Assembly (NCBI GenBank): GCA_029261065.1
Contig: JAJDCB010000030.1
Location: 132,876-196,875, forward strand
Reading direction: 5' to 3'
DNA length: 64,000 nt
Source: Candidatus Omnitrophota bacterium
GTDB lineage: Bacteria > Omnitrophota > Gorgyraeia > Zapsychrales > Zapsychraceae
Shown here: piece by piece, positions 10,824 through 42,934 of the stretch
Layout of the letters: each line of letters begins with the position of its first letter
Position numbering within the stretch: position 1 is the first letter of the stretch
Program-made: the position numbers and the translations under genes
Notes under the pieces: generated by a model
Database searches by the model: none
Seen by the model: only the letters and a program-made list of their open reading frames with translations
What the model was told of the DNA's origin: nothing

Positions 10824-10833
10824 ATTCAGCCTG

Positions 10834-10936
10834 TAATCCCCGCGTCAGCCAAAGGCTGATCAGCCTTTGGCTGAAAAGTAGGGAACCATTAATAATTAAA
10901 ACGACTTCGAAGTCCCCGCTTACGCAAGGATGACAT
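10834..10936. repeat. REP/MITE-like inverted-repeat element. It is a degenerate copy of the GTCATCCCCGCGAAAGCGGGGAT family, with a perfect 30-bp palindrome (10845..10874, tcagccaaaggctga|tcagcctttggctga) nested in the loop of the left hairpin.
   Basis: Left arm gtaatccccgcg-[30-bp palindrome]-aaagtagggaacc. Right arm gtccccgcttacgcaaggatgacat (10912..10936). Compare locus 19063..19152. Confidence 0.5.
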
Positions 10937-19058: not shown

Positions 19059-19062
19059 CGAT

Positions 19063-19152
19063 GTCATCCCCGCGAAAGCGGGGATCCATGGGGTAAGGGG
19101 ATTAAGTAGTAGTATTATTATATTGAGGTCCCCGCTTCCGCGGGGATGACAT
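19063..19152. repeat. REP/MITE-like element made of two inverted copies of gtcatccccgcg(a/g)aagcgggga(t/c)c flanking an AT-rich spacer
   Basis: Left arm 19063..19087 (gtcatccccgcgaaagcggggatcc). Right arm 19127..19152 (ggtccccgcttccgcggggatgacat) is its reverse complement with two changes. Each arm is itself a hairpin (atccccgc-gaaa-gcggggat). Confidence 0.6.
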
Positions 19153-19175
19153 TATTTCTTTTATGGATTAAAATT

Positions 19176-19655
19176 ATGACACAACACCGCATAGGAATTG
19201 GTTACGATATTCACCGACTTGTAGAGGGGCGCAAGTTAATTCTCGGAGGCGTTGAGATTCCTTATGAAAAAGGTCTTGATGGGCACTCTGATGCAGATGT
19301 ATTGTTACACGCTATTTGTGATGCCATTTTAGGTGCGATGTGTAAGGGCGATATCGGCGAACATTTTCCTAATACGGACCCCGCTTACAAAGATATTTCA
19401 AGTATCGTATTGTTAGAGAAGGTGGGTGATCTTTTAAAAGAAGAAGGCTATTGCATTACCAACATCGATACCATGCTTCAAGCTGAAGAACCAAATATCA
19501 AATCATTTAAAGCGGCCATGAAAGAAAATATCGCCAAAGCGTTATCCTTAGATGTTGAGACCATCAACATCAAAGCCACCACACAAGAACGTTTAGGAGC
19601 TCTTGGTAACAAAGAAGGCATCGCCGCTTTTGCGAGTGTATTATTAATTAAATAA
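19176..19655 (+). CDS. ispF: 2-C-methyl-D-erythritol 2,4-cyclodiphosphate synthase IspF
   Basis: '[12 protein letters not shown]...[19 protein letters not shown]' matches IspF. The start was set at the internal ATG 19176 because the 19146 ATG lies inside the repeat element. Confidence 0.9.
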
Positions 19656-23408: not shown

Positions 23409-24200
23409 ATGGGAAAAGCTGTTCAAGTAAGACTTGGAGAATACCGTCCGGCTACATTATTTGATCTTAATAACATAGAATGTGATCGAGGCGATTTTGT
23501 CGTTTTAGAAGTGGATCGCGGTTCGGAATATGGTTTGGTGATTACAGATGTTAAAAGCACTTGTAAGGGAAAGATAGAAAATACAAAGGGAAGAATTTTA
23601 CGTAAAGCCACAGAAGGCGATTTAAAACAAATAGATAATAATTCCAGTAAAGCAAAAGAAGCGTTAAGTGCCTGTGTGCGCAAAGTTACAGATCGTAAAC
23701 TTGATATGCAGATCGTAAAGGCTGAGTACACTTTTGATAGTAGCAAGATTATATTTTTTTTCACCGCTGATGGTCGTGTTGACTTTCGTAATCTTGTTAA
23801 AGATTTAGCGCGTATTTTTCGCGTTCGTATTGAGCTTAAACAAATAGGTGTCCGTGACAAAGCCAAAATTGTAAGTGGTTATGGTGTTTGTGGTCGAGAA
23901 TTGTGCTGTTCTTCTTATATGAAAGGTTTTCATCCTTTGTCGATCAAGATGGCCAAAGAGCAGGGTTTACCCCTTAATCCATCACGAATTTCTGGGGTCT
24001 GCGGGCGTATAAAATGTTGCATGGCTTATGAATTTAACGTCTATAAAGAGTTTTCGAAATCATTACCTCGTGTTGGTGAAAAAATCACTTGGACGGAGGG
24101 AAAGGGCCGCGTTATTGAGGTTAATATCCTTAAGCGGCTTGTAAGTGCGGAGATGGCGGAAGGTCATATTGTCAAAAAAGAATTTGAGATGAATGCATAG
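23409..24200 (+). CDS. PSP1 C-terminal domain protein (YaaT/RicT-like)
   Basis: 263 aa with a Cys-rich segment 'GVCGRELCCSSYM...GVCGRIKCCMAYE' typical of YaaT. It lies downstream of holB. Confidence 0.8.
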   Translation: MGKAVQVRLGEYRPATLFDLNNIECDRGDFVVLEVDRGSEYGLVITDVKSTCKGKIENTKGRILRKATEGDLKQIDNNSSKAKEALSACVRKVTDRKLDMQIVKAEYTFDSSKIIFFFTADGRVDFRNLVKDLARIFRVRIELKQIGVRDKAKIVSGYGVCGRELCCSSYMKGFHPLSIKMAKEQGLPLNPSRISGVCGRIKCCMAYEFNVYKEFSKSLPRVGEKITWTEGKGRVIEVNILKRLVSAEMAEGHIVKKEFEMNA

Positions 24201-24287
24201 TCTTTTTAGTAGGGTTACTATTGGTGTTTTAATTATATAAAACAATCTATAGTAACCTTTTTTCGTGTCAGTTGAAGAATAGAAATA

Positions 24288-24377
24288 GATTCCCGCTTTC
24301 GCGGGAACGACAGTCATTTGTCATGCGCGTTTTCACAAGAGCGACAATCACTTGTCATTCCCGCGAAAGCGGGAATC
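24288..24377. repeat. REP/MITE-like element, the T-variant of the same family, with two inverted copies of gtcattcccgcgaaagcgggaatc
   Basis: Left arm 24288..24317 is the reverse complement of (atgactgtcgttcccgcgaaagcgggaatc). Right arm 24353..24377 is gtcattcccgcgaaagcgggaatc. The stem change c->t is compensated by g->a relative to locus 19063. Confidence 0.6.
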
Positions 24378-24410
24378 AAATAATAATTTTATTACAAATT
24401 TTACTCAAAT

Positions 24411-25916
24411 ATGAAAAAGAAATTTTACATCACAACTCCCATCTACTACGTAAATGACAAACCTCACATTGGGCATGCCTACACAACGATTTTGGCTGAT
24501 GTTCTAACACGTTTTCATAAGTCTCAAGGGCAAGAAACTTTTTTTCTAACAGGACTTGATGAGCATGGGCAAAAGGTTGAACAAGCCGCTCGTGCGCGTA
24601 ATCTATCCCCCAAAGAACATTGCGACGATTTGGCTCCTCGATTCTTACAACTCTGGGAAAAATTAGAAATTCAATATGACGATTTTATTCGTACCACCGA
24701 AGCCCGTCACGTGAAGGTCGTCCAATCTGCGCTTCAACAAGCCTATGATTCTGGTGATATATATTCCGATGAATATGAAGGTTGGTATTCCGTTGCTGAG
24801 GAGCGTTTTATTACAGAGACTGAAAAAGAGTCAGGCGATTTTCGAGATGTGAAGAAGCTAAAGGAATGTAATTGGTTTTTCCGTATGAGTAAGTATCAAC
24901 AAAAGCTCCTCGATTACATAGAAGATAATCCTAGTTATATCCTACCCGAACATAGAAAGAATGAAATTCTAGGTTTTTTAAGACAACCATTATCAGATTT
25001 ATGTATTTCTCGCCCTAAAGAGCGTTTAAATTGGGGGATTGAGCTTCCTTTTGATCAGGATTATGTGACGTATGTTTGGTTTGATGCATTACTCAATTAT
25101 GTTTCTGGCTCTGGCTATTTATCAGACGATAAAAAATTTAAAGAATGTTGGCCGGCTGATATTCATCTTATTGGAAAAGATATTCTGACAACGCACGCCG
25201 TTTATTGGAGCACGATGTTGTTTTCTCTAAATATCCCGTTACCTAAATCCATTTTTGCTCACGGTTGGTGGATGCTAGATAAATCAAAGATGAGTAAGTC
25301 TTTAGGCAATGTGGTTAATCCTTTAGATTTAATTGATGAATATGGAGTCGATCCTGTTCGGTATTATTTAATGCGAGAGATGGTTTTAGGACAAGATGCG
25401 AATTTTACAATGGAATCGTTTATCAAACGTTTTAATAGTGATTTAGCTAATGATTTTGGAAATCTGCTTAATCGATTAAGTGGGTTAATAGGAAAAAATT
25501 TTGATGGATGTGTTCCAGAAGAAGGTAGTTTGACAGACGACGATCAATTGATAAAACAAGCAGCTGAGAAACTGGATAAGTCTGTAACGGAGATGGTCAA
25601 TCAATTAAAGATTAATGATGCGATTGAAGCGGTTTTGCAATTAGTGCGTATGGTAAACAAATATATGGAGGTACAAGCCCCATGGAAAGTTGCTAAAACA
25701 GATTTATCACGTGCTGGAACCATTCTTTATACAGCCGCAGAAGCCTTACGGATTTCAGCCGTACATCTTCTTCCTGTTATGCCTATAAGAGCTCAGAAAG
25801 TGTTGGATGTTTTAGGCGCTCCTAAGAGTTTGGCACAGTGGGGAGGCCTAAAAGCTGGCACCAAATTAAAAGAACACGAAGCCTTGTTTCCAAGGCTTGA
25901 GATAGATAAAGAGTAA
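24411..25916 (+). CDS. metG: Methionyl-tRNA synthetase, short form lacking the C-terminal tRNA-binding appended domain
   Basis: 'PIYYVNDKPHIGHAYTTILADV' HIGH region and 'KMSKSLGN', 501 aa. Confidence 0.95.
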   Translation: MKKKFYITTPIYYVNDKPHIGHAYTTILADVLTRFHKSQGQETFFLTGLDEHGQKVEQAARARNLSPKEHCDDLAPRFLQLWEKLEIQYDDFIRTTEARHVKVVQSALQQAYDSGDIYSDEYEGWYSVAEERFITETEKESGDFRDVKKLKECNWFFRMSKYQQKLLDYIEDNPSYILPEHRKNEILGFLRQPLSDLCISRPKERLNWGIELPFDQDYVTYVWFDALLNYVSGSGYLSDDKKFKECWPADIHLIGKDILTTHAVYWSTMLFSLNIPLPKSIFAHGWWMLDKSKMSKSLGNVVNPLDLIDEYGVDPVRYYLMREMVLGQDANFTMESFIKRFNSDLANDFGNLLNRLSGLIGKNFDGCVPEEGSLTDDDQLIKQAAEKLDKSVTEMVNQLKINDAIEAVLQLVRMVNKYMEVQAPWKVAKTDLSRAGTILYTAAEALRISAVHLLPVMPIRAQKVLDVLGAPKSLAQWGGLKAGTKLKEHEALFPRLEIDKE

Positions 25917-33193: not shown

Positions 33194-33206
33194 GGTATAA
33201 AAGTTT

Positions 33207-33262
33207 GTCATTCCCGCGAACACGGGAATCTATATGGATACCTGTTGTCACGGGTATGACAG
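33207..33262. repeat. REP/MITE-like element (gtcattcccgcgaacacgggaatc plus a degenerate inverted copy) between comFC and lptF
   Basis: Left arm 33207..33230. Right arm 33241..33262 (cctgttgtcacgggtatgacag) reverse-complements to ctgtcatacccgtgacaacagg. It belongs to the same family as loci 10.8 kb, 19.1 kb and 24.3 kb. Confidence 0.5.
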
Positions 33263-33272
33263 TTTTAAATCA

Positions 33273-33998
33273 TTAACGAATCGCTAGCGTCAAAACTCCA
33301 ACAGTGTTAGCCCCTGCTTCTTTCAGTGTTTGTGCTGCTTGCGAAGAGGTTGCCCCTGTTGTTAGTAAATCGTCTATAAGAAGAATAGATTTGTTATTTA
33401 CATTTGAAGGAGTACTCATTTTAAAAGCCGATGTGAGGTTTGTCCAGCGATCTTTTCGACTTAATGATGTTTGATTCTTTGTGTGTTCTACGCGTTTTAA
33501 AATATTTGGCTTTAGGGGAATCTTGTAATACTTAGATAATCCTTGGGCCAGACAAAAAGCCTGATTATACCCCCTTTCCCGTTGTCGCGTTGGATGGAGG
33601 GGGATGGGAATAAGCAAATCAAATTGTTGGATATCTAGACTGTATTTTTTGACATGGGAAATCATTAGATTCGCTAATGTGTGGCGTAGCATAGTCTTTT
33701 GACCATATTTAAAGGAATGAATCATTTTTTTTAAATGAGCTGTATAAAGACAAGCTCCCCAAGCAAAATCAAAATGGGGCTTGTAGGTGCGGCAATTATG
33801 GCAAAGGGCAGCCACATAGGGCCCCTGTAGGTGTCTGTTACACTTTTGACAGAAAGGCGGGAAGTTCATCCTCATGCATCTCAAACAATCCGGACACACT
33901 CCTTCCTGGGAATTTTGGGTAGGTATTTGATTATGGCAAATAAAACAATTACGGGGGAAGACCAGATCACATAATCCGGTAATGATGTGTTGAATCAT
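33273..33998 (-). CDS. comFC: ComF family protein (ComFC-like; double zinc ribbon plus phosphoribosyltransferase domain)
   Basis: N-terminal CxxC...CxxC ribbons ('CFICHNQ...CPDCL...CQKCNRHL...CHNC') and a C-terminal PRTase motif 'ILLIDDLLTTGATSSQAAQTLKEAGA'. Confidence 0.8.
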   Translation of the reverse strand: MIQHIITGLCDLVFPRNCFICHNQIPTQNSQEGVCPDCLRCMRMNFPPFCQKCNRHLQGPYVAALCHNCRTYKPHFDFAWGACLYTAHLKKMIHSFKYGQKTMLRHTLANLMISHVKKYSLDIQQFDLLIPIPLHPTRQRERGYNQAFCLAQGLSKYYKIPLKPNILKRVEHTKNQTSLSRKDRWTNLTSAFKMSTPSNVNNKSILLIDDLLTTGATSSQAAQTLKEAGANTVGVLTLAIR

Positions 33999-34005
33999 TG
34001 GGGTT
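33878..34005. repeat. Direct repeat copy 1 (128 bp) covering comFC codons 1-40 plus 7 nt of leader
   Basis: 124 of 128 nt are identical to 34727..34854. Confidence 0.85.
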
Positions 34006-34570
34006 TATGAAATCCGATTTTGTTTTTAGATTTTATTGGTGGTTCCAGTAGTTTTTTAATGGCTTCAAAGACAATTTTAAATTGATGATCATATTTATTC
34101 TCCATCATTTCTATTTTTTGTCTCAACTGTTTGTGTGTAGACATCAATTCACGTAATTTGGTAAATGTCCGCATAATTTGGATGTTGACCTGAATGGCGC
34201 GTTTGCTTTTAAGGACGCTGGAAAGCATTGCAATACCTTGCTCGGTAAAGGCATATGGGACGTATTTTAAATTGTGTCCTCTTTTCAAGGTCACAATTTG
34301 TGACCTTGAAGAGGCAGGATTAGCCTTCTCGGAAGTTAGAATTTGTGATCTCCAAATTTTGATTTCTTCTTTTGTCATTTGGAACATAAAATCTTTTGGA
34401 AAACGTTCTAGGTTTCGTTTAACGGCTTGATTAAGGGCTTTTGTTTCGACACCATAAAGCAGGGCTAAGTCTTTGTCTAGCATTACTTTATGATTTCTCA
34501 GGAACAGTATTTTATTTTCAATAATTTCAGATGATGAGATGTTTGTTGATGCTGATGATTTTTTTGTCAT
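33995..34570 (-). CDS. ORF6N-domain protein (KilA-N-related, phage/mobile-element associated DNA-binding family)
   Basis: 'LDKDLALLYGVETKALNQAVKRNLERFPKDFMFQMTKEE...SQIVTLKRGHNLKYVPYAFTEQGIAMLSSVLKSKRAIQVNIQIMRTF' matches the conserved ORF6N core. Its stop overlaps the comFC start (ATGA). Confidence 0.7.
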   Translation of the reverse strand: MTKKSSASTNISSSEIIENKILFLRNHKVMLDKDLALLYGVETKALNQAVKRNLERFPKDFMFQMTKEEIKIWRSQILTSEKANPASSRSQIVTLKRGHNLKYVPYAFTEQGIAMLSSVLKSKRAIQVNIQIMRTFTKLRELMSTHKQLRQKIEMMENKYDHQFKIVFEAIKKLLEPPIKSKNKIGFHKPQ

Positions 34571-42877: not shown

Positions 42878-42934
42878 AATGGGCGAGCCTCGTCATTTTT
42901 ATGAAAATAAAGAGACAACGACGGGAGAAATAGT

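Follow-up and report, generated by a model that had tools for sequence, protein, structure and literature searches.

What is the 90-bp element that lies between the ispD and ispF genes of a Candidatus Omnitrophota genome, and which enzyme, if any, does it belong to? The element is found at one of four intergenic loci with inverted hairpin pairs in the 64,000-nucleotide stretch of DNA analyzed here (the window), and the original prediction had described these loci as a REP/BIME- or MITE-like family, possibly mobilized by a RAYT/IS200-type transposase encoded elsewhere. The description as a REP/BIME-like family stands: the repeats are hairpins with a tag, most of them arranged as inverted pairs and located between genes. 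With regard to their identity, the window units very probably represent the CGTC-tagged REP superfamily, family 1, in its TGTC variant, and thereby the NTS/SRM repeats of the GIY-YIG nuclease, Ssn, with the tags-outward pairs as gene-less relatives of a unit-ssn-unit cassette.

The window contains eight copies, some of them decayed, of a 27-nt unit made up of a TGTC tag, an 8-bp stem beginning with AT, a 4-nt loop, the complementary stem, and a 3-nt tail whose first base is nearly always C. A search with the 23-nt consensus GTCATYCCCGCGAAAGCGGGRAT, allowing up to three mismatches, gave five close matches at 19063-19085 (+), 19128-19150 (-), 24289-24311 (-), 24354-24376 (+) and 33207-33229 (+), versus none in 100 dinucleotide-preserving shuffles, in agreement with the paired hairpin units predicted at four intergenic loci. 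A looser, hairpin-aware scan recovered two additional, diverged units at 33238-33260 (-) and 10912-10934 (-), and a third diverged unit (10832-10888, +) was recognized by direct reading of the sequence. As predicted, each unit is itself a hairpin (8-bp stem, 4-nt loop) and the units are GC-rich in an AT-rich genome (~65% G+C versus ~38% for the window). The tag is TGTC in seven of the eight units and TGTA in the decayed left unit at 10.8 kb. Stems in the window are ATCCCCGC, ATTCCCGC, ATACCCGT and, in one instance, GTTCCCGC, while the loops include GAAA, GGAA, GAAC, GACA and GTAA. The tails are likewise varied (CCA twice, CTA twice, CTC, CAA and TTC), and the leading C is absent from only one. 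An Rfam search of the window returned no matches at gathering thresholds.

The 19.1 kb locus is a complete tags-outward pair of 90 bp (19062..19151) with a 43-nt spacer, situated within the ispD-ispF spacer, and its inverted repeat is 96% complementary. The left unit (19062..19088, +) reads TGTC, ATCCCCGC, GAAA, GCGGGGAT, CCA and begins 4 nt past the ispD stop codon, while the right unit (19125..19151, -) reads TGTC, ATCCCCGC, GGAA, GCGGGGAC, CTC and ends 24 nt ahead of the ispF ATG at 19176. As a single strand, the pair is foldable as one long hairpin or as two short ones, with predicted energies for the element of -53.9 kcal/mol as RNA (z -8.2) and -27.4 kcal/mol as DNA (z -7.2). At 24.3 kb, both tags point inward: one unit (24286..24312, -) consists of TGTC, GTTCCCGC, GAAA, GCGGGAAT, CTA, and the other (24353..24379, +), positioned 31 nt ahead of a metG-like ATG at 24411, consists of TGTC, ATTCCCGC, GAAA, GCGGGAAT, CAA. 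Between these two units are the tag-like remnants AGTCATT and TGTCATGCGCG.

The remaining two loci are less well preserved. At 33.2 kb, a unit composed of TGTC, ATTCCCGC, GAAC, ACGGGAAT, CTA (33206..33232, +) lies 12 nt from the start of an LptF/LptG-family gene (33193, - strand), and together with its diverged partner (33235..33261, -; TGTC, ATACCCGT, GACA, ACAGGTAT, CCA) it forms a 56-bp tags-outward pair. At 10.8 kb, the decayed left unit (10832..10888, +) has the order TGTA, ATCCCCGC, G, a 30-nt palindrome, AAAG, TAGGGAAC, CA; its loop is interrupted by a perfect palindrome, TCAGCCAAAGGCTGA plus its complement (10845..10874), that occurs only once in the window. The decayed right unit (10909..10935, -; TGTC, ATCCTTGC, GTAA, GCGGGGAC, TTC) completes a 104-bp tags-outward pair. 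The decay of the 10.8 kb units and of the right unit at 33.2 kb, together with the variable tails, suggests that these are old, eroding copies. The uniform architecture originally proposed is therefore only partly borne out: inverted pairs are present at all four loci, but the tags face inward at 24.3 kb (n = 1) and outward at 10.8, 19.1 and 33.2 kb (n = 3). Likewise, the idea of two like copies per locus requires qualification, as the left unit at 10.8 kb is split by the palindrome and the right unit at 33.2 kb differs in both stem and loop.

All four loci lie between co-directional genes. The 10.8 kb locus is flanked by genes for a class IV aminotransferase and a small UVR-motif protein, the 19.1 kb locus by ispD and ispF, the 24.3 kb locus by a PSP1-domain gene and the methionyl-tRNA synthetase-like (metG-like) gene, and the 33.2 kb locus by a phosphoribosyltransferase-like gene and the LptF/LptG gene, on the - strand. 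One gene away from the 33.2 kb pair, positions 33995-34570 encode a protein with an ORF6N domain, a domain that is often phage-linked. The nearest relatives of the window's IspD among its homologues are 59% identical. As anticipated, spurious ORFs cross the units, namely 24063..24317 (-), 24272..24457 (+), and an ispF extended from 19146, and their translations contain the peptides MTVVPAKAGI and RFPLSRER, which we take to be typical read-through products of such repeats. The genuine ispF start is ATG 19176, since its product is the called gene. The repeats thus create both spurious ORFs and a false, extended ispF start, a point of practical relevance for annotation.

The unit is by no means confined to these four loci. 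A further copy occurs ~2.4 kb beyond the right end of the window, and a scan for the exact 23-mer, with one genome taken per species, gave at least 120 stretches of other genomes. Hosts among the matches listed include Alpha-, Beta-, Gamma- and Deltaproteobacteria, Dehalococcoidia and other Chloroflexota, Parcubacteria, Saccharibacteria, Peribacteria, Omnitrophota, Nitrospirota, Planctomycetota, Verrucomicrobiota, Bacteroidota, Acidobacteriota and Gemmatimonadota, among others, so that an exact unit is common to very distant phyla. A total of 280 units was found in 120 loci among the matches listed. In this set, GAAA is the commonest loop (186 units) and stem position 3 is T-A in 190 units, C-G in 61 and G-C in 16, counts biased by the use of the pattern to choose one or more units in every locus. 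No such selection acted on the first tag base, on tails and partner units, or on orientations. Here, the tag is CGTC in 149 units and TGTC in 89, the tail is CCA in 191, and neighboring pairs are tags-outward in 67 cases, tags-inward in 12 and direct in 9.

The compensatory stem substitution that had been proposed is present in the window, where the third stem pair is C-G in both units at 19.1 kb but T-A in those at 24.3 and 33.2 kb. Covariation was then considered across genomes. Among 102 distinct units with 4-nt loops, 97.1% of stem cells are paired and there are 87 double changes versus ~12 after shuffling, although the finder used to collect these units itself demands pairing and so biases the count. 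To avoid this bias, units were chosen in a second test by tag, tail and the first two stem pairs only; 96.7% of cells at the six inner stem positions were then paired, whereas shuffles averaged 78.0% and never exceeded 82.1%. Inner positions 3, 5, 6, 7 and 8, five of the six, each show several pair types. The hairpin is kept by compensatory changes and is under selection. No variation is seen among the 102 aligned units at G2, T3 and C4 of the tag or at C25 after the stem, the bases identified as critical for the nuclease (PMC11893778).

These features lead to two separate literatures. CGTC REPs were defined by Di Nocera et al. in 2013 (PMC3733652) as hairpins that carry CGTC, frequently replaced by TGTC or CCTC, at the terminus, with a stem of 8 bp in families 1 and 2 or otherwise of 9 bp that almost always begins with A-T followed by T-A, a loop of 4 nt in family 1 or of 5 nt, a short tail with the consensus CCA, and one predominant kind of inverted pair. 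Members of family CGTC-1 include the dRS3 repeats of Neisseria and RPE-6 of Rickettsia conorii (PMC3733652). The window units share the [C/T]GTC tag, the 8-bp, AT-first stem, the 4-nt loop, a single dominant type of inverted pair, a placement between unidirectional genes, and the rarity of direct pairs; their tails, in contrast, vary, with the consensus CCA in two units. The tags-outward pairs would correspond to the "HH" pairs of that study. Unlike GTAG REPs, CGTC REPs were found with no flanking transposase gene and with no RAYT between units in any host, and their spread was left unexplained (PMC3733652); that report covered five host phyla and gave no dedicated enzyme.

The second literature supplies the enzyme. 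Chenal et al. (Nat Commun 2025, PMC11893778) described a 28-nt NTS with the consensus CGTCATTCCCGCGMAVGCGGGAATCYRG and a more general SRM with the search pattern HGTCWYN(0-2)YYVSBRHN(0-5)WNVSBRGN(0-2)RNCYNB. This pattern matches two of the eight window units (19062-19089 and 33206-33233) versus 0.11 expected, the others failing in the tail or stem, and four window units have 3-4 mismatches to the NTS consensus. Core, directional tag and the C after the stem are held in common, and the differences lie in the tag, which is TGTC in the window versus CGTC, in the variable tails, and in the host, as Omnitrophota is a phylum absent from the main text of PMC11893778. Several window units are decayed, and tails other than CCA occur (CAA, CTA, CTC, TTC), so that some units may have ceased to be substrates. 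Neither the main text nor the reference list of PMC11893778 mentions Di Nocera and colleagues, and the equation of CGTC REPs with SRMs is therefore a linkage made here. It joins the CGTC REPs of 2013, described without an enzyme, to the SRM repeats of the Ssn nucleases, described in 2025, and the window repeats are a new host-phylum member of this family.

The published biochemistry is informative with regard to what such a unit can do. SsnA is a 94-aa GIY-YIG nuclease of Neisseria (CDD cd10448), and SRMs occur near 71% of its homologues, and on both sides of 42%; conversely, a homologue is encoded in 81% of genomes with more than 200 SRMs (PMC11893778). As single-stranded DNA, the NTS adopts a hairpin form, and SsnA binds it in single-stranded form only, with a Kd of ~4.5 nM; neither duplex DNA, RNA nor the opposite strand serves as a substrate, and RNA is also unbound (PMC11893778). 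Binding requires the palindromic stem sequence and, above all, the C directly after it, while cleavage occurs a few bases 5' of the tag and needs the three bases (GTC) before the palindrome (PMC11893778). In N. meningitidis, SsnA reduces transformation by NTS-bearing DNA about five-fold (PMC11893778). Strand-specific binding and cleavage were shown for the Neisseria and Wolbachia pairs only, and the NTS-ssnA-NTS arrangement was likened to an insertion sequence, as a hypothesis, with domestication suggested (PMC11893778).

The same nuclease was recovered here independently. When all ORFs of the 120 listed loci were clustered in a hunt for partner genes, one small cluster stood out, comprising four ORFs of ~95 aa whose median distance to a unit is 26 nt. 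Each encodes a stand-alone GIY-YIG nuclease (PF01541, E 1e-13 to 1e-18), and no other small gene recurs beside units in the 120 listed loci. In three of these loci (L100, L101 and L054), the gene lies exactly between two tags-outward units, and in L055, another Omnitrophota MAG, it is present with units beside it. ABC ATPases, histidine kinases and dehydrogenases also came up as potential partners and were rejected as large, ubiquitous families that recur by chance. The link between the unit and a GIY-YIG nuclease was, of course, already published in 2025 (PMC11893778).

The arrangement was also approached from the side of the protein. A set of 80 metagenomic loci was drawn by GIY-YIG protein alignment only and then scanned with a general tagged-hairpin finder. 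A + unit was found within 120 bp upstream of the gene in 64 of the 80 loci, a - unit within 120 bp downstream in 61, and both in 52, with tags outward; a few of the loci without both units may be cut by a contig end. Just upstream of the gene, + units number 6.25 per kb, and just downstream of it - units number 5.89 per kb, versus 0.15-0.30 in the far flanks and 0.19 in shuffles (both strands together). The repeat-ssn-repeat architecture of the NTS/SRM system is thus reproduced from loci chosen by protein. The resulting cassette is ~355 bp in length (median near 360 bp) and consists of a unit, a leader of ~12 nt, an ssn gene of ~95 codons, a trailer of ~5 nt and an inverted unit. The start codon is typically 8-16 nt from the stem end and the stop codon 4-8 nt from the other stem, with the tail of that unit itself sometimes providing the stop codon, and the encoded proteins are 93-100 aa.

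The borders of the cassette are sharp. In pairwise comparisons with 400 bp of flank available per side, DNA similarity starts and stops 0-7 nt from the outer tags, and a shared neighboring gene occurs in only 16 of 3160 locus pairs, ten of which represent one syntenic group of five loci. No target-site duplication of 2-5 nt was found above chance in the 52 complete cassettes, and none is visible at the window pairs. The ends of certain cassettes are those of the window: L163 carries GTCATCCCCGCGAAAGCGGGGATCCA (C-G type) at both ends of its ssn gene, with a 26-nt terminus identical to 19062..19088, while L124, L133 and L138 carry TGTCATTCCCGCGAAAGCGGGAATCCA (T-A type, as in the window) at both ends of theirs. 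An HMM search of all six frames gave no ssn gene in the 64-kb window, and no ssn ORF remnants were found in the window or in the gene-less pairs of the 120 listed loci. This is a further difference from the NTS/SRM systems, and the role shown for SsnA in Neisseria, the restriction of incoming, transforming DNA, is not to be assumed for the window.

The Ssn family is very large, with 9,686 clusters at 50% identity (E up to 1e-10) and 5,740 or more at 90% identity. The motif Y..Y......NGTLYIGVT..L..R...H......GFT is retained in more than 90% of its sequences, as is an REK motif containing the catalytic glutamate. Ssn identity is 63% for pairs with the same flanking stem versus 60% for pairs with different stems, a signal of co-variation too weak to support a claim. 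The predicted model (pLDDT 92.9) has its best matches in the UPF0213 proteins 1ZG2 and 1YWL and in the Slx1 nuclease domain, and no Ssn structure is present among its structural matches. The GIY-YIG fold is common to all of these, at identities of 24-29% to UPF0213 and 21-32% to Slx1 nuclease domains. Slx1 differs from Ssn in that it requires Slx4 and cuts branched DNA. The model match agrees with a 2006 study in which such proteins were grouped in a non-eukaryotic Slx1 cluster; the same study reported a GIY-YIG domain freshly inserted into an HsdR gene.

Tblastn against plasmid records, a set that includes some actual chromosomes and chromids, located the gene in genera listed as CGTC-REP hosts, and 11 loci were inspected. 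Of the listed hosts, N. gonorrhoeae, A. lipoferum, N. aromaticivorans and S. meliloti have the gene beside units of their own. Canonical flanks are present in Aeromonas caviae, Sphingobium and Shinella, as well as in Novosphingobium aromaticivorans, which has its own units with 5-nt loops. In Azospirillum lipoferum, the gene lies between sufB and sufC with one pair on each side, whereas no clear units were seen in Photobacterium or in one Rhizobium. Planktothrix and Spirosoma possess variant hairpins, Sinorhizobium meliloti has CCTC-tagged units with a 9-bp stem, and in Neisseria gonorrhoeae the gene is embedded within a cluster of 16 dRS3-type units.

The transposase partner suggested in the original prediction fares poorly by comparison. 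It is barely conceivable that the window repeats are classical REP/REPIN elements mobilized by a RAYT (an IS200/IS605-type Y1 transposase) encoded elsewhere, even though short, tagged hairpins in intergenic, inverted pairs have the general look of such a system. The tag is [C/T]GTC instead of GTAG, and a RAYT/IS200-type transposase is therefore not the expected partner. Indeed, no RAYT flanked by CGTC units is known from any host in the 2013 survey (PMC3733652), no transposase family recurs beside the units in the 120 listed loci, no Y1_Tnp match was obtained among the 17 window ORFs scanned against Pfam, and the gene that does lie between units is that of a GIY-YIG nuclease. The GTAG REP/REPIN/BIME elements and their RAYTs are nonetheless instructive, as they too consist of tagged hairpins, often in inverted pairs, with a single small, nuclease-type gene between its own repeats and recognition of a single-stranded hairpin. 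The two systems are not homologous, as RAYT is an HUH Y1 transposase with a covalent intermediate and Ssn is a GIY-YIG hydrolytic nuclease. It is also very improbable that a site-specific recombinase or an insertion sequence uses the units as its attachment or target sites. Such a role has precedent in the Neisseria dRS3 repeats, a known target of a phage recombinase (PMC11893778), and might seem attractive given the foreign 30-nt palindrome exactly in the left-hand loop of the 10.8 kb pair and the ORF6N-domain protein encoded near the 33.2 kb pair. However, no recombinase, IS or prophage gene is found beside any of the four loci, and a role as target would be secondary, leaving the origin and the conserved tag of the repeats unaccounted for.

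It is also unlikely that the hairpins act mainly as RNA, whether as terminators or as 3'-end stabilizers, with the nuclease link being incidental in this genome. The four loci lie between co-directional genes and would be transcribed, as has been argued for many REPs (PMC3733652), the 19.1 kb element is very stable as RNA, the commonest loop is GAAA, and a simple terminator scan flags two of the units. Against this, terminator-like sites in the region number 9 versus 9.6 in shuffles, and the 19.1 and 33.2 kb pairs are inside likely operons (ispD-ispF and upstream of lptF/G, respectively), where termination would be harmful. Moreover, the units occur in both orientations, so that half of them would present a UUUC loop, RNA is unbound by SsnA (PMC11893778), and the conserved, unpaired tag and the C after the stem are explained by the nuclease and not by RNA folding. 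A secondary effect on transcripts may nevertheless occur.

If the units are indeed the repeats of Ssn, an enzyme encoded elsewhere in this Omnitrophota genome would recognize them, and the repeats accordingly mark the genome as a likely Ssn host. The enzyme would act on them whenever they are in single-stranded form, as in replication, repair or DNA uptake. A tags-outward pair would be cleavable at its left border on the top strand and at its right border on the bottom strand; with one such site per strand, a single cut would be made in each, at the 5' edge of the element on that strand. This differs from IS200-type excision, in which two cuts are made on one strand. The pairs at 10.8, 19.1 and 33.2 kb would then be gene-less relatives of the cassette, carried as passengers in operon spacers, a relationship proposed because they have the same ends and the same geometry as unit-ssn-unit. 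From the sequences, it is equally possible that tags-outward pairs are deletion derivatives of the cassette or that they are pre-existing pairs into which the gene inserts. As the gene-less pairs contain no ssn ORF remnant, descent is argued from shared ends and geometry only, and the two directions are not separable, since both would leave an identical split-spacer pattern. Counted against the reading as Ssn repeats and cassette relatives were the less common, tags-inward layout of the 24.3 kb locus and the lack of an ssn gene in the window.

Finally, one could go further and suggest true autonomous mobility for the ~355-bp cassette, which would move via single-stranded DNA with the GIY-YIG nuclease alone, the gene-less pairs being its non-autonomous copies. 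This proposal is tentative, and we consider it somewhat less probable than its negation; the points added in its favor are the sharp borders at the tags, the lack of target duplication, and insertion contexts that are nearly all different, some of them inside operons. The comparison with IS-derived MITEs is apt in that these are also short, gene-less elements sharing both ends with a longer, gene-carrying one. Unlike MITEs, however, the elements described here lack a target-site duplication, have hairpins at their ends in place of simple terminal inverted repeats, and go with a cassette that encodes no transposase and whose transposition is putative. Were the proposal true, the cassette would be among the smallest autonomous mobile elements known, the 2013 question of what spreads CGTC REPs would be answered, and the system would extend to Omnitrophota, bacteria of the candidate phyla radiation, Chloroflexota and other phyla. 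The idea of the cassette as an autonomous element, with the window pairs as its passengers, is the sole novelty remaining after the two earlier reports, and it is unproven. Apart from their biology, Ssn enzymes are of interest as tools for single-strand DNA work.

The repeats also leave a mark on assemblies. Multi-copy repeats usually cause contigs to break inside or just after them, and the window units break short-read assemblies in this manner: short-read contig L001 terminates just past the 24353..24379 unit of the 24.3 kb locus, and contig L202 terminates inside the unit that lies beyond the window's right end.

A clear case of a repeat-flanked cassette lodged within a conserved operon is provided by plasmid AZO_p3 of Azospirillum lipoferum 4B, where the gene for the single-strand DNA nuclease Ssn, with a complete repeat pair on either side, lies between sufB and sufC (locus L204, 1374-1880). 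The gene-less unit pair between ispD and ispF at 19.1 kb of the window resembles this arrangement, in that it too is situated within a likely operon. At L054, an ssn locus from another genome, several half-units (GTTGGGAATGACA, GTTGAGAATGAAA and GTCGGGAATGATA) lie downstream of the cassette at 1578-1780 in a loose tandem with the common spacer ATGCATCAAG, suggesting that one end of the cassette was partially duplicated, and repeatedly so.

The repeats also leave their mark on gene calling and on assembly. Many database Ssn records (e.g., P0241, P0244, and P0260) carry 30-60 additional N-terminal residues. The repeat has probably misled gene calling in these cases, since the extension at another ssn locus (L101, 833-1198) is a translation of the upstream hairpin (PVAPSFPRKRES...). 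Two short-read contigs of run SRR15505515, L202 and L001, end within or just past a unit (L202:4418-4455, terminating ...TGTCATTCCCGCGAAAGCGG, and L001:10520-10553), which shows that assemblies are broken by these repeats. The L202 end lies outside the window, ~2.4 kb to its right, and thus reveals one additional unit copy there.

The same repeat seems to have been described in two separate literatures. The classification of CGTC REPs was published in 2013 with Di Nocera as first author (PMC3733652), and the SRM repeats of the 2025 Ssn paper (PMC11893778) appear to be its CGTC-1 to CGTC-3 families, with host species in common. Neither the main text nor the references of the 2025 paper mention Di Nocera (0 hits in a text search).

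Within the window, two of the pairs bear possible traces of later change. At 10.8 kb, the decayed left unit has a perfect 30-nt palindrome (10845-10874), consisting of TCAGCCAAAGGCTGA and then its own reverse complement, placed exactly within its loop; the palindrome resembles a small insertion there, and no second copy occurs elsewhere in the window. At 24.3 kb, tag-like remnants that lack hairpins (AGTCATT and TGTCATGCGCG) lie between the two tags-inward units, at 24312-24352, and they suggest that this locus is the eroded junction of at least two former elements. A possible further unit, CGTCATTTTTATGAAAATAAAGAG, is found at 42891-42914, in the spacer that separates an ABC ATPase gene from the following one. 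It possesses a CGTC tag, a GAAA loop, and an AT-rich 8-bp stem with seven of the eight positions paired, and could be either a unit that has drifted heavily towards AT or a match by chance.

A sigma-70-like promoter sequence (score 10/12) occupies 19146-19174, where the right unit at 19.1 kb supplies ATGACA with its outward-facing tag, TAAAAT follows 17 nt on, and the site ends 2 nt upstream of the ispF ATG. This match may mean nothing, since the frequency of promoter-like sites in this region does not exceed that in shuffled sequences. Finally, a 191-aa protein with an ORF6N domain, which is frequent in DNA-binding proteins of phages or mobile elements, is encoded on the minus strand at 33995-34570, at a distance of one gene from the pair at 33.2 kb.
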